A stretch of 64,000 bases of DNA, from the NCBI GenBank assembly GCA_040954595.2, contig CM082586.2:1183124-1247123 (forward strand), read 5' to 3'. This document shows positions 15,805-31,905 of the stretch, piece after piece. Source of the stretch: Balanoglossus misakiensis. Its lineage: Eukaryota > Animalia > Hemichordata. Both the position numbers and the translations under genes were made by a program. The notes under the pieces are model-generated. The model searched no databases. It had not been told where the DNA came from and saw only the letters and a list, made by a program, of their open reading frames with translations. The stretch's first letter is position 1; the number at the start of each line of letters is the position of its first letter.

Positions 15805-18800
15805 TCACACTCCCGTATGTTTCTTCTTTTTATGGCGAGACAGATAACTCTGGTGTGAGAATGCAGCGTCACAAATTCCACATTTGAAGGGTTTCACCCC
15901 AGAATGCATATTCATGTGTTCAGCCAACGTTTTCTTCCACATAAACATCCTGTGGCAGATAGGACAGCTCAGTTCGTTTTCCTGATGCATTTTGGCATGT
16001 GACACATAATCGGATAATTTTCCAAAGACGCTACTGCACAGCTCACAAGTGTATCTCTGGCCAGTATCTTCCTTGTGGATTTCATGTGTAGTGCTTTCAG
16101 CATAGTCTTTGGGATCCTGGATAACTGGCACATATGCACTGTTTTCGCCATAGTTTGCACTACCTTGGCTGTCATGAACATTACTCTCACTGCAGTCTCT
16201 GCCATCTTGGGTTACTGGTATGTACACAGTTTCTCCATAGCCTGCTGCATCTTGACTTTCCTGAACAGCCATTTCAGCGTAGTTTCCGCTGCCTTGGGTT
16301 TCACGCAGATCATTTTCAGTACGGGGACTGTCCTGCACACTGCTTCCCCCCGACTCTTCTATAAGAATCACAGGATCTTGGTTTCTGTGTGAATTTCTTT
16401 CTGTGCCATCTTTGATAACGGGGTATTCGTTTCCATCCATTTCGACGCTGTCTTGACTGCCTCCATGTCCCAGAGAATAAGAGTCTGGCTGATTAGCGAT
16501 CACTGTGTGAGGTGTTAGATCCTCCGGCCTCTCAATGGATTCCCCGCGCACGTTTGTGGATTTTTTCTGGGAGTGATACAGCCTCATATGGTTGTAGTAG
16601 GTTTGCTGTCGGTGGAAGACTTGTCTGCAAATTTCGCAGGTGAGAACTTTCCTTTTGTGTGAGTACAGGTGAACCCTGAGGACCTCCTTGCGGCCGAATG
16701 TCTTACTGCAGTAGTGGCAGCTGTACTTTGGGTCCTTGCGGTGAGTTGCATAGTGTTGGGTTAGAAGACTGGGTTTGCTGAACTTGCTGTTGCACTCACT
16801 GCACGGGAAGAGTTTCTTGGCTTGCTGTGGGTGCTTCTTGTTTCTGTGGTGCATCAGTTGACTGCGCCACTTGAACGCCTCTCCACACAGGGGACAATTG
16901 TAAGGTTTATTGCCATAATGGACTCTCAGGTGATCCTTGTAGGCACTCAGGCTGGAGAATATTTTCCCACAGATGACACAGACTGGATTTTTGCCTCTGT
17001 GGCTCTTCAGGTGAACCTTGTAAAGTGTCTGCCTTCCAAATGCCTTGCCGCAGACCCCACAGATATATTTTGCATCGCGGTGGTTTGTCTTGTAGTGGTC
17101 CTGTAAGAGATTGTGGCTGTCAAATTTCTCTTTGCACTCACTGCAAGTGTATGTTCTGCTCGCGTTGTGTTTCCTGATTTTGTGCTCTCGGAGCTGACAA
17201 CGCCACTTGAAGTTCTCTTGACAGATTTTGCACTGGTAAGGTCGCTTGCCAAAATGACAAACCTGTATGTGGTGTTGACATGCTTCCCTGCTGGAGTATA
17301 TTTTGTTGCAGTACATACATACATTGCTGCTGAAAGCATGCCTGTATTGGTGAACTTTATAAATGTCCCTTCGACCAAATGTGTCCTGGCATTCCTCACA
17401 CTTGTACTTGGATTCCCTATCGTGCATTGCATAGTGTTGTTTCAGTAACGCCGCTTCACTGAATATGGCCCCACACTCCGAGCAAAACAAAGGTCCTTCA
17501 TGTTTACTTGATATGTGACGGTTAAAGCTACACTGCCATTTGAACACTTCGCCGCACAAGTCACACTCGAACAGCTGACCTGGAGAGTGGTTCATTTTGA
17601 AATGGCCTTTCCAATCGTCTTCATCCTCACACACTTCGCCGCAACCCTGGCACGGTGAGACAGAGCTCTCAGTGTGAGTTTTGCAATGCAGCAAATACAC
17701 AGCCTTCCTACCGAAAGATTTCTCGCACTGACTACAATTGTACTTTGCTTTCTCATCGTGACTTGCATGGTGATGTTTCAGCAAGTATACACTGTCGAAT
17801 CTGGCATCGCATTCATGACAGACAAAATCACTGCCCACTTTATGCTCAGTCTTGATGTGCTTAATCCTCTGACATCTCCAATTGAACTTTTCACCGCACA
17901 AATCACAGCTGCACAATTTCTTCCCCTGGTGGGTGGCCATATGACCTCTCATCGAATCTTTGCTTTTGAGAACTTTGCTGCACAGCTCACACTTGTAAAA
18001 CTTCTGCTCAGTCATCATGATTTCCTGCATTTTGCCACGGTGCAGAACTGAATTTCCCTGGCTGCCCTTGCCTGCTGCCGGGATGTTCTGCAACACAACA
18101 TTGCTGCCATCGTGTGACAGAGTGGAACGGCCACCAGCAGAATGCCCATGTCTGTCATAACCAGCCATTCCATCACCCAGAATCACCGGCACACCATTTT
18201 CATTATAGCAGAGGGCAGTTCCTTTGAGGTTACAAAGCAAGTACCCGGAAATCATTTTTTCTCCAACAAGACCTGTTTCCTCATGCTGCACTGCAGCTTG
18301 ATGTTGATAAGCCTGGTGCCCTGTTGTCAGCACTAGTGAATTTCTATCTGCATTGACACGATCTGATTCGCCGCTTGTACTTGGACTATCCCATTCTTCT
18401 GGAGGAGGAGACTGTGCTGTTTCTGCTGCATGTGCCACATAGAAGTCGCTTGGAACCTCTTCCTTTATTCTGACTGTGGGGCTGCTATTGGTAGCCATGG
18501 CAACATCATCCTGTGGCAAATTTGATGTTACACCCACAGGATAACTATCTGTTCTGGATGGGCTTTCCGGTTGGTTCCCGTCTTCAGTTGACATGTTACC
18601 ATTCTCTGTCTGGGGTGGTTGATCTGCATCTCCATTTGGTCCCCTGTCCCTGGGGACTTCAACAATCGTACTTTGATTCGCTTCAGATTCGCCATCACTT
18701 GTTCCCAATTGAGCGGGTAAAGTTGTTCCCGAGGGTGAATTAGCATCGGACTGCAAATATTTGTCCCGGAATTCAGCACACCCGTCTCCGAGCTCCTCTA

Positions 18801-19122
18801 ACTGGAAAAGCACAGCAGCCAGTTTCAAATCCTCAACATTTCCATCACTGATCTGAATTCTGCCAGTGTACATAAAATCTAGAAGACATGGCACCAAGTC
18901 AGCCTTCACCAGCTTGAAGAAGTCTTCCACCCGCACCTTGTTATTACTGCTTGAAGTCGACACGCTGTACAGCAATGGACTTGAACTTGCCAGGACGACT
19001 TGGTGACAGGGGAAAGTTTTTTCCCCAATGTGAAGTTCAATGTCAGTAAACATAGACTGTTTTCGTAAGGTGTTGAGTTTTGACAGCATCAAAGTGGGAC
19101 TATTTGATGCTGTGAATTCCAT
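15805..19122 (-). CDS. BTB/POZ C2H2 zinc-finger protein (ZBTB-like), 1105 aa, single coding exon, ~20 fingers
   Basis: N-terminal BTB (FTDIELHIGEKTFPCHQVVLASSS...LLDFMYTG); 17 central and 3 C-terminal C2H2 fingers, the last joined by an HSGVKPF linker. Confidence 0.93.
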   Translation of the reverse strand: MEFTASNSPTLMLSKLNTLRKQSMFTDIELHIGEKTFPCHQVVLASSSPLLYSVSTSSSNNKVRVEDFFKLVKADLVPCLLDFMYTGRIQISDGNVEDLKLAAVLFQLEELGDGCAEFRDKYLQSDANSPSGTTLPAQLGTSDGESEANQSTIVEVPRDRGPNGDADQPPQTENGNMSTEDGNQPESPSRTDSYPVGVTSNLPQDDVAMATNSSPTVRIKEEVPSDFYVAHAAETAQSPPPEEWDSPSTSGESDRVNADRNSLVLTTGHQAYQHQAAVQHEETGLVGEKMISGYLLCNLKGTALCYNENGVPVILGDGMAGYDRHGHSAGGRSTLSHDGSNVVLQNIPAAGKGSQGNSVLHRGKMQEIMMTEQKFYKCELCSKVLKSKDSMRGHMATHQGKKLCSCDLCGEKFNWRCQRIKHIKTEHKVGSDFVCHECDARFDSVYLLKHHHASHDEKAKYNCSQCEKSFGRKAVYLLHCKTHTESSVSPCQGCGEVCEDEDDWKGHFKMNHSPGQLFECDLCGEVFKWQCSFNRHISSKHEGPLFCSECGAIFSEAALLKQHYAMHDRESKYKCEECQDTFGRRDIYKVHQYRHAFSSNVCMYCNKIYSSREACQHHIQVCHFGKRPYQCKICQENFKWRCQLREHKIRKHNASRTYTCSECKEKFDSHNLLQDHYKTNHRDAKYICGVCGKAFGRQTLYKVHLKSHRGKNPVCVICGKIFSSLSAYKDHLRVHYGNKPYNCPLCGEAFKWRSQLMHHRNKKHPQQAKKLFPCSECNSKFSKPSLLTQHYATHRKDPKYSCHYCSKTFGRKEVLRVHLYSHKRKVLTCEICRQVFHRQQTYYNHMRLYHSQKKSTNVRGESIERPEDLTPHTVIANQPDSYSLGHGGSQDSVEMDGNEYPVIKDGTERNSHRNQDPVILIEESGGSSVQDSPRTENDLRETQGSGNYAEMAVQESQDAAGYGETVYIPVTQDGRDCSESNVHDSQGSANYGENSAYVPVIQDPKDYAESTTHEIHKEDTGQRYTCELCSSVFGKLSDYVSHAKMHQENELSCPICHRMFMWKKTLAEHMNMHSGVKPFKCGICDAAFSHQSYLSRHKKKKHTGV

Positions 19123-20312
19123 GGTTTGTATTGTACAGGCCCACTATGACCACCGCCACACAGATGTTCTTGTTTTTGTCTGAAAGCCCAATAAGAGAAT
19201 GCTCATCAGAATCGTGTACACCGACGAGCTCGAACTACGTGGTCAAGTTCCACTTCTTGTCAAAGATCGGGAAACGTCTCATGCAAATATCGGGTTCGCA
19301 CAAACCCAACAGAAATTTCACTTCTTTTAACGAGTGCTTGACGTGTGCTTACATGCACCCGTCTTTGAAAGAATTCCCTTTGTCGCTCGAGAATGCTGCA
19401 AAAGACAATGGTGGTAATCTTGGCTGTACATTGTACAGTGCACATATATAATTGAACTGCCTGAATGAATGAATATACAGGCAGTGCCAAACTCATAGGC
19501 GACAGAATCAACTCTTTCAACCTCTAGACAAACTTACCTCTGCTATTTTAAGGTTCTCCAAACATTATCTTGATTATTACACTTCATTCAGGCGTTGGTT
19601 GTGAATTCGTTTGACGAGAGATACACTGAGTTATGACCTGGTCAAAATCCCCTAGCAACAGAATAAGCTTCATTCCGGATTCCAGGTACTTCGAAGGCTG
19701 CAGGCTGGATATCTGTGGAATCGGTGGATATTGCCACGTCCAGCTATAACTAAATTGGAGCATGTATAATTACGTTGTAATAATGTTTTAACTTGAACTC
19801 CTACATTTTCGTGACATGTCAAAGATCTGACAATAGCACCTTTGATATTTTCAATCCGATTCAGAATCTGTTCTGACCTGATCGTCTAGCCACCAACGTT
19901 CAACTTGAAAAATGTTTTGTTTACTTTCTCTGGGCTTTTGTTGCAGGGTTTCAGATATGCAAGAAAAAAAAGGGGGGGGGGTCTTTAAAAAAAACATTGC
20001 GAGGGCACACTCAAGAAGTTACACAACAGAAAGACCACAAGGGATATGAATGTCAAACACTTCATTTTTATTTCACTGAAAACTGTGATACATGTACAAT
20101 GTTTGAGATTACAATTTGAAGATACAAGTTTCATTCCTTGGCTGTTGCATTTGGTCATGTTGACATTGAATGTTTATGCAGTGTCAAACCACAGAAATAT
20201 TTATTGCTGAGTCATCTTTTTACATTATGATAGAGCTAGTAATGAATGCAAAACACTTTGTCAATTTGTGAAGTGATGTGCATCTCTGATATATTAGCAA
20301 GAGTGTGCATAT

Positions 20313-20397
20313 TAACTAAGTATTTAAAGCCGCATCACTTCGCTCATGGATATGCCTATTGTTAAAGGAATGGGTCTGGGCTTTTGGAGGCGCATCC
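20313..20397 (-). repeat. Split direct repeat B2 (element 3' terminus)
   Basis: taactaagtatttaaagccg...ggaggcgcatcc, identical to 20637-20721. Confidence 0.95.
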
Positions 20398-20532
20398 ATA
20401 GCGAAGTGTAAAACCTCTTATATTCAAAAAGCGGGAGGGCGGGTGGGAATACATTCGCAAAGGATTTACCGAGGGGGCTGGTCATATAAAAATCCCCACC
20501 CTGTCCCGTTTACGCACATAGCCCTGCTCTCT

Positions 20533-20638
20533 TGGCCTATTGCAAGGGAGGGACAGACTGTACGTTGCTCGTTGCTTTTATACTTCGGCTCATTTGCATA
20601 TGGCGGATGGATATCGCTCTGTGCTGCGGTTTTGAATA
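20533..20638 (-). repeat. Split direct repeat A2 (internal)
   Basis: tggcctattgcaaggg...gcggttttgaata, identical to 26587-26692. Confidence 0.95.
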
Positions 20639-20721
20639 ACTAAGTATTTAAAGCCGCATCACTTCGCTCATGGATATGCCTATTGTTAAAGGAATGGGTC
20701 TGGGCTTTTGGAGGCGCATCC
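20637..20721 (-). repeat. Split direct repeat B1 (internal, abuts A2 and shares TA with it)
   Basis: Identical to 20313-20397. Confidence 0.95.
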
Positions 20722-21035
20722 GGACGCAAAGCCTATTCTCCTCGCGCTTGAGCCCATTATTACCTAGTTGGGTATCCCCCCAATCCTTAAAATACAGTCA
20801 ACCAAAGTAACAAACAAGCTTCTACTACAAACACACCCAACCTTCATCCAACCATAAATTACGGCTGGAAATGAAAAAGAACGAAAAACGGTACCTTCAT
20901 TTTATTGTGCTTTATTCCGTTATAAGTACTTGAAAATTGTCTGGTGCACTCTTCCCTGTCGGGGGTATAGTGCGAGAGAGAGAAAACAAAGGGGAAAAAA
21001 TAAATTTACTGTGTCAGAGAAATACATCGGGAGGC

Positions 21036-22319
21036 TCATTTTTTCTCAACAAAAGCCTTGGAAAATCCAATTAACTCATTGAGGTTCTCATATCTTTTTG
21101 TGTTCTGCTTTTCGTCGTTGGCTAACTCAGATAAGGTGCTTGCTGGTGATCCCCAACTAATGACCTTCCCTAACTGCATATAGTACTGTGCCGTTTCTTC
21201 CGCTCTCCAACCCACATGGGACATAAGAGTCTTAATGTCCGTGCCTGCCATGGCCAAAGAAATAGCGCAAGCACTTCGGCAGCCATGTGGGGTTTCGCCT
21301 GCGTCGATTCCTACATCTAGTAGGTATGTTTTTAACCGGTGATAAGCTAATTGCGATGAGAACGGCTTTTGCTCTGGCACTCCCTGTGAGTTTGTAGGGC
21401 GAAACAGGTAACCTGTTGTAAGGTCGATATCGAGGCTGGATGCAAGCTCGAGATATGCCTCCAAAGTGTTAATCGGACACATGAGAGTATCTTGGCATCG
21501 CTTAACTGCGAATAGGTTTGACCCCGCCCCCCGGAGCGTTTTACCAAAGGTGTGATTGAAGAGCAGGCCTGAATTATCGGGTAGCCGCAAAATTTCCTGC
21601 GTTTTCACGTGTCCTAAATCATGCGCCCTGTCACCAGAGAAGGCTAGTAGTTTAAAAAATGCCATATCCCTGGCGAGAATGTACAATTGTTGAGCAGTTT
21701 GTGGGCTCTTCATTTTGTCTATAATATGACGGTAAATTAGCCGCATCTTATCTAGAAAGAGAGGTTTCGCCTGCTTTGGTGTCAGGAGTGCTCTGGCCTG
21801 TTCTTCAGATGTTTTCTTAATGTACCTTTCTATTATAATTGACTCCAAGGGGTTAGGGGTGGCCTTACCGGCTACCACTGCCTGGGACTGATAAAATGTC
21901 TTTAATTTGGAGACCATATTTCTGACTGTATTGGCACGGAGCCTTTTTGGACAAGCACACTGCTGGAGTCCAGATGATCCTAAATGTGCACAATTTACCT
22001 CATGTACCTGAGTTTTCGCGTCTTTATCTTTAAAAATAAGGAACCTAGTGATATCTTGGGGTGTTGCCGACCAGATACTTTTTTTGCTATCCAACTTAAA
22101 AAGGAACGACTCCAGTTGTTGGACGAGACGGTCCTTTTGTATTTCATGTTGAGAGCGATCGCCGAGAATGACTTGCATACGCTGATCGATTTCCGGCAGG
22201 TTAAAACCAGTTGGGAGACTTCCCTGGGCATGTTCACGCTGGCGAGAGTAGTGAGTCTTGGTGCCACAGTTATGGCAGTAGTTTTCGTGATGATTGTCCA
22301 ACCCGCACATCCAGCAGTC
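21036..22319 (-). CDS. Tyrosine recombinase with an N-terminal CxxC...CxxC motif; reading frame opens at splice acceptor 22319 (first ATG 22310)
   Basis: Catalytic R (SGDRAHD), K (FGKT), HxxR (HGCR), H/W (HVGW), Y (AQYY); DCWMCG...YCHNCG. Confidence 0.93.
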   Translation of the reverse strand, partial: DCWMCGLDNHHENYCHNCGTKTHYSRQREHAQGSLPTGFNLPEIDQRMQVILGDRSQHEIQKDRLVQQLESFLFKLDSKKSIWSATPQDITRFLIFKDKDAKTQVHEVNCAHLGSSGLQQCACPKRLRANTVRNMVSKLKTFYQSQAVVAGKATPNPLESIIIERYIKKTSEEQARALLTPKQAKPLFLDKMRLIYRHIIDKMKSPQTAQQLYILARDMAFFKLLAFSGDRAHDLGHVKTQEILRLPDNSGLLFNHTFGKTLRGAGSNLFAVKRCQDTLMCPINTLEAYLELASSLDIDLTTGYLFRPTNSQGVPEQKPFSSQLAYHRLKTYLLDVGIDAGETPHGCRSACAISLAMAGTDIKTLMSHVGWRAEETAQYYMQLGKVISWGSPASTLSELANDEKQNTKRYENLNELIGFSKAFVEKK

Positions 22320-22469
22320 CTAAGCGGGGAAAATTGGACAAGCACGTGAAGACGTACAGTGCGCATGATTTAGTCGCTTGTATATAAAAAAAAAATACGT
22401 ATATTTATCCGTTGAATAAAATTATTTTTGTTTCTTTATTTTTTGTCTGTCTGTCTCCATAATTAAGAC

Positions 22470-24644
22470 CTAAGGGGCGAATGTAGCGACAAAAAGGTCG
22501 CACTGTAGCTTATACGGATGATAACCCGATCGTGTTGGCCCAAGCACGACGCCGACCTCCCCTCGACTGGCGAATTTGTTGAAACTACGTGCCGCCCTCT
22601 GGATTGACGGCCAGAACGGAGGGTAGTGGCTCCGAGGAACGAGTACTGTTGCTTTTAGTGCGTTTTGGACGATGTGGTTCACAACAGCATGCACCAGCGA
22701 GAATGGAGGGTAGACATATAGGTTCTCATCTGGCGCGAATTTATAATTAAAGAAATTTACACCGGTGTTTTCGGGTTGTGGAAAAGCGGAAATGAATTTG
22801 GATAATTTAGCGTTAGACTTGTTTGCCATAGCATCGATTGTGTGTGGGCCAAATTGCCTGTCTATTTTCTTCCACGCCTCATCCGAGAGTGTGGCCTCTG
22901 ACAAGGACAGGTGCCTAGATGGCTGATCCGCGGGATTTTCATGTGATCTGACGTGCACTATCCTTAATCGAATATTCGACTCAAAACACAGGTTGAAGAT
23001 CTTTTTCAACAGTTCGTTTAAACGAACTGATTTTGATCCGGGGAAGCCGCCATTCCATGCGTGGACTAGGATTGCGGAATCTGAGTGTATGTCCACCCGC
23101 GCGTCGGCTAGTTCTAACTTGAAAGCAACAAGTGCTCTGGCGAGAGCCTCGGCTTCCTTTTCTGCTATTGGTCTGGGCATCCACTCGGTTTCCCACGAGT
23201 CACTGACTACTTGTCGCTGTTGCGAATTTGGCTGCAGTATTGCGGCCCATTTGAACGAGCTGGCGTCGGTGTATACATGTATAACGTTGTGGCTTTCTCG
23301 AGGCCAACGAAATGGGGGAGCGTTACGTACAATCTGGAGCCAAAATTGCACTTCCTCCCGAAGGGGACCTTTAATGCGCACCAAGTTCTGTGCCGATACC
23401 TGCATCTTAGATATGGCATGTGCCATTTGTCTTATATATAAACGCGCACAGGGGATTGCGAGAGCGAAAGAAATGCATTTCCCCATAACTTTTTGCAATA
23501 AAGTAACTGGAATAGTGGGTTTGGAAAGTACTAACTCTGCCGTCTCGAGGAAGCGAGCTACTTTCTGTTCTGGGATGATGAAAGCTTGAATTTCCGTGTC
23601 TACCGTCATTCCTAGCATTATTAGCGACCTAACGGGGTGCAGTATGCTCTTTTCTAAGGCAATGAAATACCCTGCATCGATGCACATAGCTAACAGGATG
23701 AATGCAGCAGCCTCCGCTAGTTCCAAGTCAGACCAGGAGCTGTGTTGTCTGCTTACGGTATTAGCCGTTGCTGGCAATCTCAGGGGGCCACCGTGTCTGT
23801 CGTCAATATATTGGAGGCACGGAACTCCTAACATTCTTGCATAACTAGTTATCGCATAGCCTAAGGTATGGTAGATGTAGGCGGACAATTTCCACCCAAA
23901 CGGTAATGAATTGTTCACGTACCAACGGCCTCCCCATTGGAAACCAAAATACCGCCTGTCGTATTCCCTAATGAGAACATGATCATAGCCGCTTTTATCA
24001 TCACACTTGAAGTGGTATTCTCCTTTTTTCATATACCTTGAAACGTCTATTAACTTGTCCAGTTTAAAAGGCATGTCTCTGATCCATAGATTCAGGAAGC
24101 GCATGTCTATGCACATTCGCGGCTTCTTCGGTTCGACTGTTATCGGCATAACTATGTGGGGAGGTGGGTCCCTCCCAACTTCACCAAAGACAGAAATGGC
24201 CCCAGTCTGGAGTCTATCATGTATGGTTTTGGAAATGAAACCAACGAAATTTTGACATGAGGGGTTATTAGCAAAAATCTTTGCCGGTGGAGATGGTCCG
24301 TCATATTGACAGCCCTTAAACGTGCCCCGAAAGTGCTTAAAGTACTGTGAAACGGTAACTTTGTCACATATCCAGTGCATAACTTGAGCCGGATTCTCTG
24401 CTGCCGTCGATAGGCGATTCCACACCTCCTTGTGTTTATGAACCTCCCCGGCGACAAATTCATGTGGGTTTCTAAATGATAGTAGTGCGGGCGACACTTT
24501 CTTGTTGGATTTAGCGACCTCATCGACATTGATAACGGGTCTCCTTGGTTCCTGTCGAGGGGCGCCCTCAAGAGATACCCATGTGTACGACTTTCTGGCG
24601 ACTGGAAGTTCCTCAGGGCCGGTTTCCCATGCGTAGGGAGTGAA
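22470..24644 (-). CDS. Reverse transcriptase-RNase H-methyltransferase-like polyprotein; frame open from splice acceptor 24644
   Basis: RT motifs DDKSGYDH, LPFG, YIDD; RNase H YTDAS, EKEAEA, HSDS, NPADQPSR; MT-like IDAMA..N and LYVYPPF; frame extends 49 codons upstream of the GTG called by the ORF track. Confidence 0.93.
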   Translation of the reverse strand, partial: FTPYAWETGPEELPVARKSYTWVSLEGAPRQEPRRPVINVDEVAKSNKKVSPALLSFRNPHEFVAGEVHKHKEVWNRLSTAAENPAQVMHWICDKVTVSQYFKHFRGTFKGCQYDGPSPPAKIFANNPSCQNFVGFISKTIHDRLQTGAISVFGEVGRDPPPHIVMPITVEPKKPRMCIDMRFLNLWIRDMPFKLDKLIDVSRYMKKGEYHFKCDDKSGYDHVLIREYDRRYFGFQWGGRWYVNNSLPFGWKLSAYIYHTLGYAITSYARMLGVPCLQYIDDRHGGPLRLPATANTVSRQHSSWSDLELAEAAAFILLAMCIDAGYFIALEKSILHPVRSLIMLGMTVDTEIQAFIIPEQKVARFLETAELVLSKPTIPVTLLQKVMGKCISFALAIPCARLYIRQMAHAISKMQVSAQNLVRIKGPLREEVQFWLQIVRNAPPFRWPRESHNVIHVYTDASSFKWAAILQPNSQQRQVVSDSWETEWMPRPIAEKEAEALARALVAFKLELADARVDIHSDSAILVHAWNGGFPGSKSVRLNELLKKIFNLCFESNIRLRIVHVRSHENPADQPSRHLSLSEATLSDEAWKKIDRQFGPHTIDAMANKSNAKLSKFISAFPQPENTGVNFFNYKFAPDENLYVYPPFSLVHAVVNHIVQNALKATVLVPRSHYPPFWPSIQRAARSFNKFASRGEVGVVLGPTRSGYHPYKLQCDLFVATFAP

Positions 24645-25284
24645 CTGAAAAGGATAGATATAAACTGTGGGCTACTACATGTAAAAATGTTCTCTTGAGG
24701 GGGCCCCTAGACAGGACCTCAGTAAGGCGAGGCTGCATGAATGCAAAGGACTGTTTTAGTCCTCCCTGCGTTCGGGGCGATGTTTGGTGTATGATAGATA
24801 CGGTATATCCGCTACTGGTTGAGTGGGGCCAATCTAGGAAGGCGAGATAAAAACAAAAAAAAAACATTTTTTTTTATTTTTTTTTATTTATTTATTTTTT
24901 TTTATTCTCAAGACAACCTTTTTAATTGTCACGGAGGGTTGTAAGCAACCTCGACTTTTCGTACATATCAAGTTATCAAAAGCATCACAGCAAGTTCTTA
25001 ATCGTGGGTGTGCGTGTAGCGTTTGCTGAAGCCCAGTTCCTCAGGCACGTTTTTTGCGACTTTATGTATATGCGTGAATGCGTTCCGTCCATAGTGCGAG
25101 TGGTTGTGGAAAGTATGCGATTGTGCAGGTGTGCATGAAGGCGTCAATTAGTGTGCAGGCGACCGAGAGGAGTATGCGTGTAAGTGTGCATGCGTGTACG
25201 TGGATGAGTAACCCATGTTTACTTGCTGTGACGAAAAAATATCCACGATCAACAAGAAAAAAAAAAAACAGCAATGTGGTTACA

Positions 25285-26572
25285 CTACTTTCTATTTGGG
25301 CAGGCTCTGGCAACATGCCCTTTCTCACCGCATACAAAGCATGTGACTAGTTCATCTTTGTTTCTTCTCTCGTATGGTCTAAATCGTTCGAATTGTGCTC
25401 TTGGGCGACGATAGCCGCCATGGCCGCTATCCCGCATAAACTTCGACACTTTCGACGCGATTTCCTCCTCTTCTTTATTTCCCAGTAGTAGAACTATCAA
25501 CCTCCCAGCTTCTTGGCCGAAATCATTTGATTCAAACTGAGCTAGGACCGCCCGGAAGCGATGTAACTTTGGGTGAGCTGCTACCGTCGCCCTATCCACC
25601 AGGGCCCTCAGGGCGGCGATGAGCTGGGATCGTGAGGTTAACGATGGAGTATGGGCCAGGTGCATGACTTTTTCCAAGGCGTCATCCACAGATGCGGTTT
25701 CTGTCAATTCTTGCAGTTTTTTCACCTGCTTCTTTAGGTTCTCCAACTCCCCTTTCTGCAATAAACGTACACATACAATAACTTCTCTGCCCATTACCAC
25801 GGGTGGAAAGTATACTTGCTCTCCCGTACTGAATACTCCCCTTTTGTTTACAGGGCGAGCGCCTTATTACATAGGCATCAGCAAAATTCAAGGCGAACAT
25901 GCTTCTGCCACGTAAATGACCGCTCACATTGCTCCTCCCTCGAGCCTATGTATTTCCTTTAGCCTCAGCCACAATAATTCGGCGCTCTCGCAGTCATCAC
26001 CGGATGAACTGCCTGGCCGGTCTCCTTGGCACTCATGGGTATAACCCACCCAGCTCTATTTAACAAACAAATGTTGGCGCTCTCGCAGTATATCACACTG
26101 CCTGGCCTGCCGCTCACTCCTGTAACTCCAAGTATTCGACGCATATTGCATAGAATTTTTTTTTTTTTTTTTTTTTTTCAACTGGCGAAACAGGTGGTGT
26201 CAGGCCTAACAGGTGGCGGAGTTTCAAAATGGTGATTTGGCCTTCCACCTGCACTAGGAAAATTCGGAAGGCGAAACAAAAGGACAAACACGAGGAGAGA
26301 AGTTTTGGTGGACCGTAGTGCATAAAAAAACTGCACTGCAACAAAACCGAAATGACCGGCGGCATACAAGGGGGAATACTAACCTGGGTAACACTGCTGC
26401 TGACGCTTGTTGCCTCTCCACTTGCTGGTGTTGGTGCAGGCTTAGGCGCTGCTGCGGCATTTTGCTGGGGTGTGGCACCACTAGGACCGGGTCTTGGCTG
26501 GGGAACGGAAAGTTCTGCGGAGTCCTGGTGTGAGTCCACAAAAGCTCGGGCTGCGGGACCAGTATGAGCCAT
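25285..26572 (-). CDS. Gag-like protein, predicted spliced: leader exon 26572-26384 plus exon 25755-25285 (219 aa)
   Basis: CFVCGEKGHVARAC zinc knuckle and coiled-coil-like N-part; donor CAG|GTTAGT and acceptor TTGCAG|AAA, both phase 0. Confidence 0.8.
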
Positions 26573-26586
26573 GGTTCGTGCTATCG

Positions 26587-26692
26587 TGGCCTATTGCAAG
26601 GGAGGGACAGACTGTACGTTGCTCGTTGCTTTTATACTTCGGCTCATTTGCATATGGCGGATGGATATCGCTCTGTGCTGCGGTTTTGAATA
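26587..26692 (-). repeat. Split direct repeat A1 (element 5' terminus) containing the putative promoter
   Basis: Identical to A2; sense strand has ATGCAAAT (26653-26646) then TATAAAA (26636-26630), ~60 nt upstream of the leader ATG. Confidence 0.9.
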
Positions 26693-26973: not shown

Positions 26974-29900
26974 TTAATTTTGTGAGTCACTTGTGGAAAC
27001 AAGGGCAGAGTTTTCTGCGCTTGCTTCTTTCCCATAATGGAATTTTCTGAAGTGATTTCTGAGACCCATCAAAGTTGAAAATTCTGAGAGGCACTCCGGA
27101 CAGGTCAGGTTGGGAAGACCTAGCTCGTGTTGCTTTTTGTGAAATTGGAAGACCCAGGACGACTTGAAGGATTGCCCACACTCTCGGCAACAGAATGGAA
27201 ACCTGAATTTGGAGAATTTAGGGCGCATTGGGGAGGATCTCTTGGGAGATTCACTGACACTATCTGTTGAGATCTCATCGTTTCGAGAACACTTGCTACC
27301 GACACTTGGCTTCTCCGTTGCCATGCGGCCATCTTGTGAACTGCTTTCAGCTCTACTCTCCTCACTGCTCAGATCACCTTTGTGGAATTTCCTAAAGTGG
27401 ATTATCATGTTCCAAAACGACGAAAATTCCCAGCGACACAGCGGACATGTCTGGCTCGACAGACCCAACTCATGTTGCTTCTCGTGAAGTTGGAGAAACA
27501 GCAACAACTTGAAGTACTGACCACATTCTGGGCAGCGGTACCGGAATTTGGAATTTGGTGGATTGAAGAAAATTTGGTTGCTTTCAGAATTGTCATTGTC
27601 AGTAGACATCTGGTCACTGTCGCTTTGTGAACTGATGCGGTCTGACACTCCGTCTAATTCTGCATTTAATTCTCTTGCATTGTGATCTCTTTTGAAGTGA
27701 CTGCTAACACTGAGATAATTAGAAAAATGTTCAAGACACACTGGACATGTTTGGTTTGATAGGCCTAGCTCATGTTGCCTGTTATGTAGTCTGAACAACA
27801 ATGTACACTTGAAGAACTGCCCACATTCTTGGCAGCGATATTGGAATTTGGAGTTTGGAGGATTTGTGAAAATTTTCCGGCTTCCTGAGAATTTTCCGTC
27901 ACCTGGAGAGCATCCATTCACGTCATTCTGTTCCCATTCTTCTTCGTCATTCTGTGAAGTGTTTTCTAACGACACATCAATGTTTTCTGCACCGGCAAGA
28001 TCTCCTTTGTGGACCGTTCTGAAATGAGTTACAAGATTCACAAATGAGGCAAACGTTCCCAGGCACAGTGGACATGTTTTCTTTGATAGGCCCAATTCGT
28101 GCTGCTTTTGGTGAAGTTGTAGCAGTAACAGACACATGAAATACTGGCCACATTCTTGGCAGCGATGTGGAAATTTGGAGTTTGGTGGGTTTATGTAAAT
28201 AGTGTCGCTTTCTGCTATGTCGCTGTCAGTAGATAACTGGTCACTTTGTGAGTACATGGATCTGTCTTCAGTGTGCGAGTTGTTTTGGGAAACTTGATCG
28301 CTGCTCTCCATGTTTGCCTGGTCGCTTGAAAGGCTCTCATTCATGTCAATTTGATCATCCATTTTGCTGCCATTTTGTGAATCGTCCTGGCATTCTATAT
28401 CACTGCTTTTCCCATCCTCAATATTATCCATATGGCAGTTTTTAAAATGAGCTGCAACAATCTTCAGCATGGAAAATTCCTGCCGACACACGGGACATGT
28501 AAGGTTTGACAAACCAAACTCGTGCTGCTTTTTGTGAAAGTTGAACACCCACAAGGACTTGAAACACTGTCCACAATCTTGGCAGCAAAATGGATACCTG
28601 AATTTCGAAAATCGTCGGTTTGGAAACTTTCCAGGGAATGTCTGGTCTTGCAGAGAGCTCTCACTCTCATCACCGTGTACTACATCATCAGTTTCTGCAC
28701 TTTCAAGAATGTCCCTGTGAAATCTTTTCAAATGTGTCCCGAGAGACCCCTCACTTGAAAATTCCCACCGACAGACCGGGCAGGTGGACGTTGACAGACC
28801 CAACTGATGTTGTCTCTCATGAAGTTTGATACGGGACCAACTCCTGAGGTACTTGCCACATACTGGGCAGCGATGAGGATATTTGGAGTTGACAGGATTT
28901 TGGTAAACTTGGTGGCCTTTTATAACCTCCCTACCGGTAGATATCTGGTCAATTTGTGAGGAGCTCTCCCCGTCAAAACTTTGTGAGGAAACCTCAGCAC
29001 CACTCTCTGTGTTTGCCTCTTCTTCTTCAAGATGGTATTTTTTACAGTGAGTTCGAAGCGCTGCCTTTCGGGTGAACTCTGCCCGGCACACTGGACATAT
29101 GAGGCTGGGAAGGCCCAACTCATGCTGTTTTTTGTGAATCTCGAATATCCATATTAGATTGAAGCCCTGACCACATTCCTGGCAGATGAATGGGTACCGG
29201 TATCGTCGGAATGATCGGGTTGGGAGGTCTTTATGATTTTCTATGAATTTACCGTCAGCAGATGTCTGACCACAAGGAGAGAACTCATTCACATCACTTT
29301 GTTCATCAACTTGGCTGTCGTTCTGTGAGCCATTTTGAGATTCCAGGTCACTTTGTACATCTGGAAATTTGGAACAAACAGGATTTTGAGTTTTTTCACA
29401 GTTTTCTGACGAATCACTCTGGATGCTAGTAATGAGTACTGTGTCACTTTGGGTGCCAATATTCTGTGCTGCATCACCCTCAGTGATGTCCCCCAGTAGT
29501 ACAGTGCCCAGGGTAATATCACTGACTCCTGCATCACTCTGGGCGTTAGCACACAACACTCCACCATTTTGGGCGTTGGCAAGCAGTACTGTATCAATCT
29601 CTGCATTGGGGCCATTTTGCCTCGGCGTCGAGTCATGCTGCAAACCACCTTGATGTGCGTGTTCCAAGGAATCCCTACCGTCCTCTGTTCCCACAGTATT
29701 TGGGGATGCGGGAGAACTTTGCAAACTGTGCACTGAGGAACCACCACTGACGGTCACCTGGTTGAATGCAGTCGAGTCGTTCTGCCCATCAACACCGACA
29801 TCACCTTGAGGTCTATCTTGCGGAACTTCCCAACTGTCGCCACTATTTGTCATCTCACTGCTGTGGTACTCTTTGAAGTGCTTTCCGAGGTTCATAAATG

Positions 29901-31602
29901 TTGAAAACTCCTTGCCACATGTCGGACACGTCCGGGTAGACAGACCTAAGTCGTGCTGCCTTTTGTGAAGTTGGAATGACCACATGTACCTGAAAAACTG
30001 TCCACACTGTTGGCAGCGATACGGAAATTTGGAGTTTAAAGGATTTGTGAAAGTTTTAACGCTTTCTGGCGATTGAGTGTCACTTGGAGAAAGTTCGCTC
30101 CCGTTTTGTCCCCACAAAGCATTAATGTTTTCTGCCTTTTTGATGTCATGTCTGTGAAATCTTTTGAAATGATTTCCAAGATTTGGAAATGAAGAAAATT
30201 TAACTCGGCACAGGGGACAGGTTTGGTTTGACAGACCCAACTCATGCTGCTTTTCGTGAAGTTGAAATAACAACGGGCACTTGAAATACTGTCCGCATTT
30301 TTGGCAGCGATGTGGATATTTGGAGTTCGATGGGTTGAGGTAGATGTGGGTACTTGTTGTTGAATTGCTGCCTGTTGATGTTTCGTCTGATGGAGGGCGG
30401 TTGTCAGCTTGCGGTGTCTGCTCTGAGTCCACAACTGTGCTTTTGTTGGATTCGCTTCCTCCTGAGCTTCCGTCACCCTCGGTTACTGCTGCCATGTGAT
30501 GGTCTTTCCGGGAATGGTTTCCAGCATGCCCCAAACTGGGGACGGTCGATAGCGTGAGTGGTGTGACAATACCTGTAGTCTCGAGTGCTGTTGCAGAGGG
30601 ATTATCCCCCTGGTCCATGCTTGTATCCAGTTGTTCAGGTCTCCAACCACTTTGCTCGGTTGCTGTGTAGTACTCAACAGAATTGTCCATCATCGTGTCT
30701 TGGCCTGCAGCCTCAGCAGAAGATATCTGAATTGCTGTATAGAACTCTACGTTGCCATCCATACTTTCATCACAAAAATCATTTGAAGACAAAGTCTCTC
30801 CTTCATACTCATCTGCAGGCTCAATTTTCACTGACACGATTTGTCCAAGACCGCTCACCTGACCCTCAGTATTTGACTGTACATTGCAAGAGGGCACACT
30901 ATCAGTTTGACCATTCGCAGCTATTGTACCTGCATGTGTTGGAACAGGAGAGCAGTGGTTGTCATGCATACTGCTAGATTCCCACTCCATACCGTCACAA
31001 CCACCTCTGTTGTTTCCAGACTCTTTCCTCCCAACCTTTTCGTTTTTAATCCTTGTCTCTGGGATCCTTGTGGAACTTGCACCACTGTCAACACGATTTG
31101 AAACTGATCGTGTGACGAATACACTGTCCCCGCTCTGTGACAGTTCCCATGAAACCGACTGCTCGGTCTCTGCCTCACTAGTGACAGATTGTGTTGCGTC
31201 CTCTGTTCGCTGTGGCACCCCCTGGAGGTCCTCGCATATTTGACTCAAACGACGGACCCTGAAGAGCTTGGCGGCAGAATGAAGCTTTCTCTCTTCTCCT
31301 TGCTGGACTACCACCTTTCCTTTGTAGACAAAGTCCAGCAGCTGTTTCAGAGTATCTGCAGAGATGGCAGTCATGTGAACCCGCTGCACTTTGCTGTTCT
31401 CCAAGAAAATCTTGTAGAAGACGTCGCTGCAGCCAGACAGCACTAACTTGTGACAAGGGAACTCTTGGTCTCCTACGCAAATTGTCACATCCGTCATGAT
31501 GGACCGATCCCGGAATTTATCCAGAGACTCAAGCATTGTGTCTGCCAAGTCTGGTGCCACCAGACAGATGAAAGCACTGTTATCACCAGCAATGGTCGCC
31601 AT
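26974..31602 (-). CDS. BTB/POZ zinc-finger protein (~1542 aa) with nine spaced C2H2 finger pairs
   Basis: BTB (TDVTICVGDQEFPCHKLVLSGCSDVF...LLDFVYKG); nine CxxC...H...QHELGLS...CPxC...H doublets; acceptor ttcag|gttgc at 31614 just upstream of ATG 31602. Confidence 0.92.
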   Translation of the reverse strand: MATIAGDNSAFICLVAPDLADTMLESLDKFRDRSIMTDVTICVGDQEFPCHKLVLSGCSDVFYKIFLENSKVQRVHMTAISADTLKQLLDFVYKGKVVVQQGEERKLHSAAKLFRVRRLSQICEDLQGVPQRTEDATQSVTSEAETEQSVSWELSQSGDSVFVTRSVSNRVDSGASSTRIPETRIKNEKVGRKESGNNRGGCDGMEWESSSMHDNHCSPVPTHAGTIAANGQTDSVPSCNVQSNTEGQVSGLGQIVSVKIEPADEYEGETLSSNDFCDESMDGNVEFYTAIQISSAEAAGQDTMMDNSVEYYTATEQSGWRPEQLDTSMDQGDNPSATALETTGIVTPLTLSTVPSLGHAGNHSRKDHHMAAVTEGDGSSGGSESNKSTVVDSEQTPQADNRPPSDETSTGSNSTTSTHIYLNPSNSKYPHRCQKCGQYFKCPLLFQLHEKQHELGLSNQTCPLCRVKFSSFPNLGNHFKRFHRHDIKKAENINALWGQNGSELSPSDTQSPESVKTFTNPLNSKFPYRCQQCGQFFRYMWSFQLHKRQHDLGLSTRTCPTCGKEFSTFMNLGKHFKEYHSSEMTNSGDSWEVPQDRPQGDVGVDGQNDSTAFNQVTVSGGSSVHSLQSSPASPNTVGTEDGRDSLEHAHQGGLQHDSTPRQNGPNAEIDTVLLANAQNGGVLCANAQSDAGVSDITLGTVLLGDITEGDAAQNIGTQSDTVLITSIQSDSSENCEKTQNPVCSKFPDVQSDLESQNGSQNDSQVDEQSDVNEFSPCGQTSADGKFIENHKDLPTRSFRRYRYPFICQECGQGFNLIWIFEIHKKQHELGLPSLICPVCRAEFTRKAALRTHCKKYHLEEEEANTESGAEVSSQSFDGESSSQIDQISTGREVIKGHQVYQNPVNSKYPHRCPVCGKYLRSWSRIKLHERQHQLGLSTSTCPVCRWEFSSEGSLGTHLKRFHRDILESAETDDVVHGDESESSLQDQTFPGKFPNRRFSKFRYPFCCQDCGQCFKSLWVFNFHKKQHEFGLSNLTCPVCRQEFSMLKIVAAHFKNCHMDNIEDGKSSDIECQDDSQNGSKMDDQIDMNESLSSDQANMESSDQVSQNNSHTEDRSMYSQSDQLSTDSDIAESDTIYINPPNSKFPHRCQECGQYFMCLLLLQLHQKQHELGLSKKTCPLCLGTFASFVNLVTHFRTVHKGDLAGAENIDVSLENTSQNDEEEWEQNDVNGCSPGDGKFSGSRKIFTNPPNSKFQYRCQECGQFFKCTLLFRLHNRQHELGLSNQTCPVCLEHFSNYLSVSSHFKRDHNARELNAELDGVSDRISSQSDSDQMSTDNDNSESNQIFFNPPNSKFRYRCPECGQYFKLLLFLQLHEKQHELGLSSQTCPLCRWEFSSFWNMIIHFRKFHKGDLSSEESRAESSSQDGRMATEKPSVGSKCSRNDEISTDSVSESPKRSSPMRPKFSKFRFPFCCRECGQSFKSSWVFQFHKKQHELGLPNLTCPECLSEFSTLMGLRNHFRKFHYGKEASAENSALVSTSDSQN

Positions 31603-31905
31603 CTTAAGTGCAACCTGAACATTAAAGAAACAGAGAAAAAACATACTTAATGAACAGATGTGAATTCTCATGTTTCAATACACATGATATGAGTCAGTGT
31701 AAGGCCAGTGACACACATGTACATGATAGCCAGACACCTGATTTTAAACACTGCCCTGTTACACGAAAATCATCACACCCAGTGTTTTGAAATACAACTT
31801 TGACAGTGCATTGAACCAGAACAACGCAGCTCCGAACATGGAGCTACCTAGCTGCAGTTCCAAAGCTCGAGATTTGGCCTTGTATGCGGCTATGACAGAA
31901 TGAAC

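Follow-up and report, generated by a model that had tools for sequence, protein, structure and literature searches.

A predicted coding leader exon and three in-phase candidate acceptors in a PAT-like, ALOG-bearing retrotransposon of Balanoglossus misakiensis

Results

An intact PAT-like element on contig CM082586.2

The DNA analysed here, a 64,000-nt window of the genome of the hemichordate Balanoglossus misakiensis (assembly GCA_040954595.2, contig CM082586.2), contains a complete tyrosine-recombinase retrotransposon that extends from position 26692 to position 20313 of the minus strand. All coordinates refer to the window, and all features of the element lie on this strand. The element is delimited by split direct repeats in the arrangement A1…B1-A2-B2. 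Repeat A1 (26579..26692, 114 nt), which forms the left end and carries a TATA box, is 98.2% identical to A2 (20525..20638), and B1 (20637..20721, 85 nt) is 100% identical to B2 (20313..20397), which forms the right end. A2 abuts B1, with a TA common to both; the same TA is found at the left and right ends of the element, and no target duplication was seen there. In the usual scheme A2 and B2 abut, whereas here they are separated by a spacer of 127 nt (20524-20398).

The interior encodes Gag, Pol and the tyrosine recombinase (YR) in three stop-free, non-overlapping frames, separated by gaps of 640 and 150 nt. Gag contains a CCHC zinc knuckle (PF00098, E 2.9e-06). Pol combines a reverse transcriptase (RT; RVT_1, E 3.5e-06) with a YIDD motif, an RNase H (RH; RT_RNaseH, E 0.0013) and a methyltransferase (MT; Dam, E 0.0028) with a YPPF motif, all three matches scoring below the curated Pfam cut-offs. 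The YR frame comprises an N-terminal CxxC…CxxC zinc ribbon, an ALOG domain (E 3.6e-14) and a recombinase domain (Phage_integrase, E 2.1e-09) in which catalytic motifs of the R-K-HxxR-H-Y type were located. With Gag, RT-RNase H, a tyrosine recombinase and no DDE integrase, the element falls into the order DIRS. Its repeat layout and domain content assign it to the PAT-like, ALOG-bearing group: the direct repeats are split, and an MT domain, albeit a sub-cut-off match, follows RNase H. It shares a zinc finger in Gag, a YR in the same orientation and internal repeats behind YR with the echinoderm Pat1 form (the last trait as inferred from the text of the source), and the combination of zinc ribbon, ALOG and YR catalytic domain with ALOG-type DIRS1 retroposons. 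The DIRS1-like superfamily was rejected because the terminal repeats are direct only, with no inverted terminal repeats, and the Ngaro-like superfamily because an MT domain is present. The element is thus an intact PAT-like, ALOG-bearing tyrosine-recombinase retrotransposon, placed by its features rather than by an RT/RH tree. Its closest named relatives are found in acorn worms (Pol, 59% identity in Ptychodera flava and 53% in Glandiceps talaboti; YR, 51% in P. flava). Three open frames and repeats that are 98-100% identical mark it as a young intact copy and a ready model.

A predicted leader exon, its donor and three candidate acceptors

The TATA box (26630..26636), a putative promoter element, lies 58 nt 5' of an ATG at 26572 that is found in the context ACCATGG and is the first ATG behind it; two other ATGs of repeat A1 precede the TATA box. 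This ATG opens the coding part of a leader (26384..26572) of 63 codons, rich in Ala, Pro, Gln, Ser and Thr, as are the leaders of relatives, which ends at a predicted phase-0 donor, CAG/GTTAGT, at 26384/26383 (GTTAGT, 26378..26383). Ranked with a generic donor matrix, this site is third among 291 GT sites and first when only sites 5' of the YR exon are counted, and the T content across it rises from 0.12 to 0.40. An original prediction, made from the sequence alone, had proposed that the leader is spliced alternatively, in phase 0, to each of the three frames. When recomputed, every coordinate of the leader ATG, its 63 codons and the donor was correct, and each of the acceptors at 25755, 24644 and 22319 was likewise found to be in phase 0 and followed by a stop-free frame, giving predicted products of 219, 787 and 490 aa with the leader included.

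The Gag exon (25285..25755, 156 codons) includes the CCHC knuckle and starts at its predicted acceptor in a register common to relatives. The Pol exon (22470..24644, 724 codons) encodes RT, RNase H and the Dam-like methyltransferase; as originally noted, an in-frame TAG lies 10 codons upstream of its predicted acceptor, and the first Met comes only at codon 89. For the YR exon (21036..22319, 427 codons; zinc ribbon, ALOG and recombinase), it also held that the TAG of the predicted acceptor is itself the in-frame stop and that the first Met, at codon 4, stands behind the first Cys. Missed by the original prediction was that the Gag frame is open for 36 codons 5' of its acceptor and contains an in-frame ATG (25792..25794) 13 codons upstream of it, a possible leader-independent start. 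Between the start of the element and the Pol acceptor there are 34 ATGs, and 80 up to the YR acceptor, so that simple scanning is excluded for Pol and YR.

Scored with a matrix derived from the YR acceptors of relatives, the YR acceptor ranks second and the Pol acceptor tenth among 345 AG sites; the Gag acceptor is absent from the top 14 and is the best in its local 190-nt window. The top-ranking site is a competing acceptor-like sequence (24833..24860) that is in phase 0 and meets a stop after 25 codons, and the third, at 22469, uses the Pol stop codon itself, again in phase 0, with a stop after 15 codons. These two sites, likewise absent from the original prediction, are possible decoys that would dampen expression of the enzymes. 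A tandem TAG-TAG at 24677-24671 provides a second in-phase candidate acceptor for Pol, 9 codons 5' of the proposed one.

Conservation of the splice signals among relatives

A metagenome scan with a YR alignment yielded 282 relatives, the best 80 of which were analysed; they are about 40% identical to the window element and form 42 families at 80% nucleotide identity. The YR acceptor was assessed in loci with an anchor and 80 nt of upstream DNA (58 loci), 48 of which, representing 26 families, had an intact first CxxC, so that 32 loci were dropped. A phase-0 YAG (Y, pyrimidine) is situated 36-45 nt 5' of the first Cys in 25 of the 26 families (46/48 loci), in 22 of them at exactly 42 nt, and the same test displaced by 1 or 2 nt succeeds in 1/26 and 0/26 families, respectively. 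The site reads TAG, an in-frame stop, in 18 families and CAG in 7; the 20 nt before it have a mean pyrimidine content of 0.83, and the conserved N-terminal peptide of YR starts directly 3' of the AG. The first Met often lies more than 100 codons into the frame. Just 2/26 families possess an in-frame ATG between the stop and the first Cys, and both keep the acceptor as well. Position and phase of the YR acceptor are thus conserved, and conserved ATG starts that lack splice sites are not the rule.

For Gag and Pol, the matrix was trained on YR acceptors only, and the phase of the best AG before each frame was then scored. Among 25 anchored Gag loci, 23 had enough upstream DNA (15 families), and the best acceptor is in phase in 10/15 families (p 0.0085, or 0.009 when rounded). 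The corresponding figures for Pol are 33 anchored loci, 29 of them usable, and 10/17 families in phase (p 0.027). When the longest-frame representatives are considered, the proportion for Pol changes from 10/17 to 6/9 and 5/6 as the required open frame lengthens, the last value applying to families whose frame is uninterrupted for 400 codons (p 0.018). The acceptor phase is thus strongly conserved for YR and, at these p values, also supported for Gag and Pol.

Leaders were sought by a rule-based search in 18 loci and then by eye. Five families (L008, L012, L016/L054, L024 and L050) have Ala/Pro/Gln-rich leaders of 41-54 codons that end at a phase-0 GT, across which the T content climbs from 0.10-0.23 to 0.50-0.60; three of these donors are good. 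In L080, a good donor follows a leader that is longer and frameshifted, and no leader with a donor was found in L001, L019 and L028. The predicted first intron spans 1-2.5 kb and is packed with T-rich tandem repeats in L008, L009, L010, L012, L016, L050 and L054. A mollusc-type subgroup (L013:3-719; P0117, P0118, P0223 and P0226) has a folded-looking leader domain of 130-170 aa that is continuous with Gag, and in L013 a donor is located inside this continuous leader-Gag frame; in this subgroup, Gag would be unspliced and Pol and YR would be spliced. The Pol relatives P0151, P0175 and P0190 combine the methyltransferase with a C-terminal extension, and P0151 has an SGNH-like domain (PF13472), which is usually tied to Ngaro elements. 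A scan of viral contigs with Pol returned 5 pattern matches and no relative.

Gene models of relatives

The RefSeq proteins of relatives, which are automatic gene-model predictions, fix the exon starts independently. In P. flava, P0235 and P0240 consist of a 70-residue low-complexity leader joined to Pol. P0111 and P0116 comprise the first 154 residues of P0235 (the leader plus 84 aa of Pol) followed by YR; they leave Pol at residue 154/155, ahead of a Val in the uninterrupted Pol, which is what a phase-0 donor predicts. A single residue precedes the first Cys in their YR part, a start identical to that of the window. A different P. flava family is represented by P0236, whose 77-residue leader is joined to Gag no more than 1 residue away from the window register. 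Overall, the exon starts of the P. flava models lie 0-2 residues from those of the window element. In Mytilus, P0127 joins leader and YR at a position where the genomic frame P0131 has Gln (an acceptor codon) and where Val (a donor codon) follows in the Gag-type model P0101. The Argopecten models P0222 and P0230 represent leader plus Pol, the bivalve models P0038, P0042, P0045, P0032 and P0049 a leader joined to YR, and Lineus P0065 a leader, a piece of Pol and YR. When the 145 N-terminal residues of oyster P0032 were used as the query, only P0032 itself was recovered among 695 candidates, so that a complete set of three products was not assembled for any one mollusc family. Leader-bearing Gag, Pol and YR products of the proposed kind are thus present among the RefSeq models, but additional internal exons are evident from them as well.

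Poly(A) signals

Potential poly(A) signals are found behind each of the three exons: six hexamers in the Gag-Pol gap (24873..24926), an AATAAA 30 nt past the Pol stop (22435..22440) and two AATAAA between the YR stop and B1 (20901..20916). Each group may serve as a poly(A) site, and the three mRNAs may therefore end separately, an arrangement that suggests alternative last exons. In the window, hexamers are missing from the predicted first intron, and three lie inside coding frames; the counts in the two gaps are by themselves not beyond those of shuffled sequences (chance of at least one hexamer, 0.57 and 0.38). Among relatives, a hexamer is present in 8/10 Gag-Pol gaps (3.1 expected; 4 of 14 loci were dropped for want of a knuckle), 10/16 Pol-YR gaps (2.5 expected) and 12/28 regions behind YR (5.8 expected), an enrichment beyond that of shuffled sequences.

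Genomic surroundings

The element is flanked by two long single-frame genes on the minus strand, 26974-31674 (1566 codons) and 15805-19143 (1112 codons), which look like BTB plus C2H2 zinc-finger proteins (domains named by eye). The stop of the former precedes the element by about 280 nt. From position 322 to about 8000, the window is occupied by an AT-rich 87-nt unit with a strong GC skew, repeated in tandem about 90 times.

Discussion

The splice signals of this element have a defined anatomy, share one phase and are conserved. Together with the leader-bearing RefSeq models, their conservation in relatives supports the leader and alternative-exon strategy put forward in the original prediction, and we consider it likely that splicing of the leader, predicted here from sequence, is the route by which Gag, Pol and YR are expressed. 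One promoter in A1 would drive all three genes, and the 63-codon leader would be joined in frame to one of three downstream exons, supplying the start codon and a shared, presumably disordered N-terminus. The choice of acceptor would then set the Gag:Pol:YR ratio, a task for which an overlap or frameshift has been suggested in other DIRS-order elements. The three mRNAs may each terminate before B1-A2, as alternative last exons, so that unspliced read-through RNA would be the only complete template for reverse transcription. The later steps, in which the A and B repeats would serve to form a circle and YR would carry out insertion, are taken from the model published for the order. That this copy uses exactly three direct junctions appears somewhat more probable than other arrangements. 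More tentatively, and with the balance rather against it, the marine ALOG-type PAT lineage as a whole may follow a splice-and-terminate programme, in which a coding leader serves three last exons, with poly(A) sites of their own ahead of B1-A2, and tags Gag, Pol and the recombinase for the same particle.

Several observations weigh against this interpretation. At the level of the element itself, Gag has an ATG of its own at 25794, and the Gag and Pol acceptors score modestly, being outranked by sites that yield short products. Among relatives, no in-phase best site was obtained in 7/17 Pol and 5/15 Gag families; most of these are frameshifted copies, but L075/L076, a distant intact family with a Met-started Pol of 927 codons and no in-phase acceptor, is a true exception, which nonetheless carries a TAG-G site before YR. 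A Met is located within 11 codons of the acceptor in the Pol of 3/10 in-phase families and at codon 3 in the Gag of family L007. The leader donors are weak in two of the five families (L008 and L050), a stop occupies the donor site in L044, and L006 carries leader and Gag in one frame, with no strong donor in the examined DNA. In the gene models, in turn, the closest YR relative (P0001 family, 51%) reaches YR via a second donor inside Pol and P0236 quits Gag midway for Pol, both of which indicate that more than three forms may exist; P0117 and P0232 simply fuse Gag, Pol and YR. Finally, the opposite strand is nearly as rich in poly(A) hexamers in the Gag-Pol gaps (7/10), with counts of 6/16 for Pol-YR and 5/28 behind YR; since these counts weaken the enrichment, the poly(A) part of the scheme is only suggestive.

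Some of these points would be accommodated if splicing were real but not cleanly three-way, with the mRNA for the recombinase, and perhaps that for Pol, passing through an internal Pol or Gag exon, or with Gag made from its own ATG. We regard this as possible, though distinctly less probable than direct joining of the leader to each exon. It would agree with the parting of P0111/P0116 from P0235 at residue 154/155, ahead of a Val in Pol, with the mid-Gag-to-Pol joint of P0236, with the composition of Lineus P0065, with the donor inside the continuous leader-Gag frame of the mollusc-type L013 and with the ATG at 25794. However, a conserved second donor in the 5' part of Pol was not found among 33 anchored loci, in a search that left 30 of 42 families unscored; sites above threshold occur only in L008, L023 and L031, at differing places. 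The window itself has no GT at the position of the P. flava Pol donor, and the sole phase-0 donor in its 5' Pol stretch is a weak site at 24426.

Leader splicing would be dispensable altogether if each frame had its own internal promoter or were re-initiated at its first ATG, the acceptor-like sites being by-products of T-rich intergenic DNA. The non-overlapping frames with their gaps of 640 and 150 nt and the Met near the start in some relatives would fit such a scheme, and YR of the window element, started at codon 4, would lose just 3 residues. Pol, by contrast, would be deprived of 88 residues, including a conserved FR[DN]P stretch, the YAG before YR is fixed in position and phase in 25/26 families, with only 1 and 0 families in the two shifted phases, and 24/26 families have no ATG before the zinc ribbon, with the first Met often more than 100 codons in; this explanation is therefore improbable. 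In trans-spliced operons, acceptors stand in series, one before each cistron, with poly(A) signals behind the previous one. The three serial acceptors of the element, with poly(A) hexamers behind each preceding cistron, form a similarly operon-like layout, which could mean that a host leader is added in trans to resolve a polycistronic RNA. Yet a spliced leader of the non-coding kind supplies no ATG, each cistron would need one of its own 3' of the acceptor, and phase 0 would not be maintained; moreover, a coding leader with a donor exists in cis, both here and in relatives, and the RefSeq models carry it. We thus judge trans-splicing to be very unlikely. Least credible is the route suggested for Ngaro elements, frameshifting or read-through (Poulter and Butler 2015, quoted in PMC13003380), even though in 3/19 families the Pol stop touches or overlaps the YR start. 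The gap from Pol stop to YR acceptor measures 24-338 nt in the other 16/19, the three gapless families keep the acceptor, and in the present copy the stop-containing gaps of 640 and 150 nt between the frames all but exclude a frameshift.

If the splice-and-terminate programme applies, the spliced mRNAs would not be copied back, only the unspliced read-through RNA would be, and tagging by the leader would replace the Gag-Pol fusion of long terminal repeat elements. The element offers a testable answer to the question of how one widespread DIRS-order lineage translates its RT and recombinase. The scheme would also correct the protein boundaries by placing the N-termini of Gag, Pol and YR where open reading frame callers, which cut into the middle of the zinc ribbon, do not, and it poses the problem of how introns persist in a retroelement whose RNA intermediate could shed them.

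In the full-text literature searched, no description of spliced expression was found for a DIRS-order element, in line with the view of the original prediction that the strategy is apparently undescribed for PAT/DIRS elements. The scheme is likely to be family-wide, with no published description found. The literature consulted (PMC7192593, PMC4157794, PMC2632668, PMC9341512, PMC13003380, PMC6681497, PMC9210276, PMC3266345, PMC12477816, PMC5890265, PMC9940879, PMC5633606, PMC3705302, PMC3537659) presents overlapping frames as frequent and cites a probable frameshift for the Ngaro YR. The ALOG DIRS1-type retroposons, going by the available text, share with the window element a knuckle Gag, RT-RNase H, an adenine methylase of the inactive type, a YR with zinc ribbon and ALOG, direct repeats and marine hosts (Iyer and Aravind 2012, PMC3537659). 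They are mostly represented by broken metazoan copies whose MT was read as fused to ALOG-YR, whereas the frames are intact and separate here; the available text has zero occurrences of "splic", "intron" or "exon", whereas the window frames sit behind predicted acceptors. Similarly, the PAT-like echinoderm form, as presented in the accessible text, has the A1…B1-A2-B2 layout, an MT, a zinc-finger Gag and a same-strand YR (Szitenberg et al. 2014, PMC4157794), and a PAT-like family is common to Nematostella and Saccoglossus (Piednoel et al. 2011, PMC3266345). For these elements, the portions available describe no splicing, and the window element differs in its non-overlapping frames and its 127-nt A2-B2 spacer. 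Ngaro-like elements resemble it in repeat order and in having YR downstream of Pol, but lack an MT and are thought, from the quotation in PMC13003380, to produce YR by a probable frameshift.

Splicing is already known from other retroelements, according to the available parts of the sources, namely for foamy virus Pol (PMC3705302) and Copia Gag (PMC5580714). In the Ty1/Copia short Gag mRNA, as in the scheme proposed here, splicing and early termination set the ratio of structural to catalytic proteins, but the single splice yields Gag only, and Pol remains in an unspliced polyprotein, as far as the text at hand goes (Oberlin et al. 2017, PMC5580714). Foamy viruses, as described in the excerpts available, likewise make Pol apart from Gag via a spliced mRNA whose 5' donor is common to another gene, and a suboptimal acceptor is believed to determine the ratio; they differ in that the leader does not code for protein, Pol begins at a start codon of its own and Gag is translated from unspliced RNA (PMC3705302). 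In the Balanoglossus element, which is no retrovirus, the predicted splices would instead fuse a coding leader to all three proteins.

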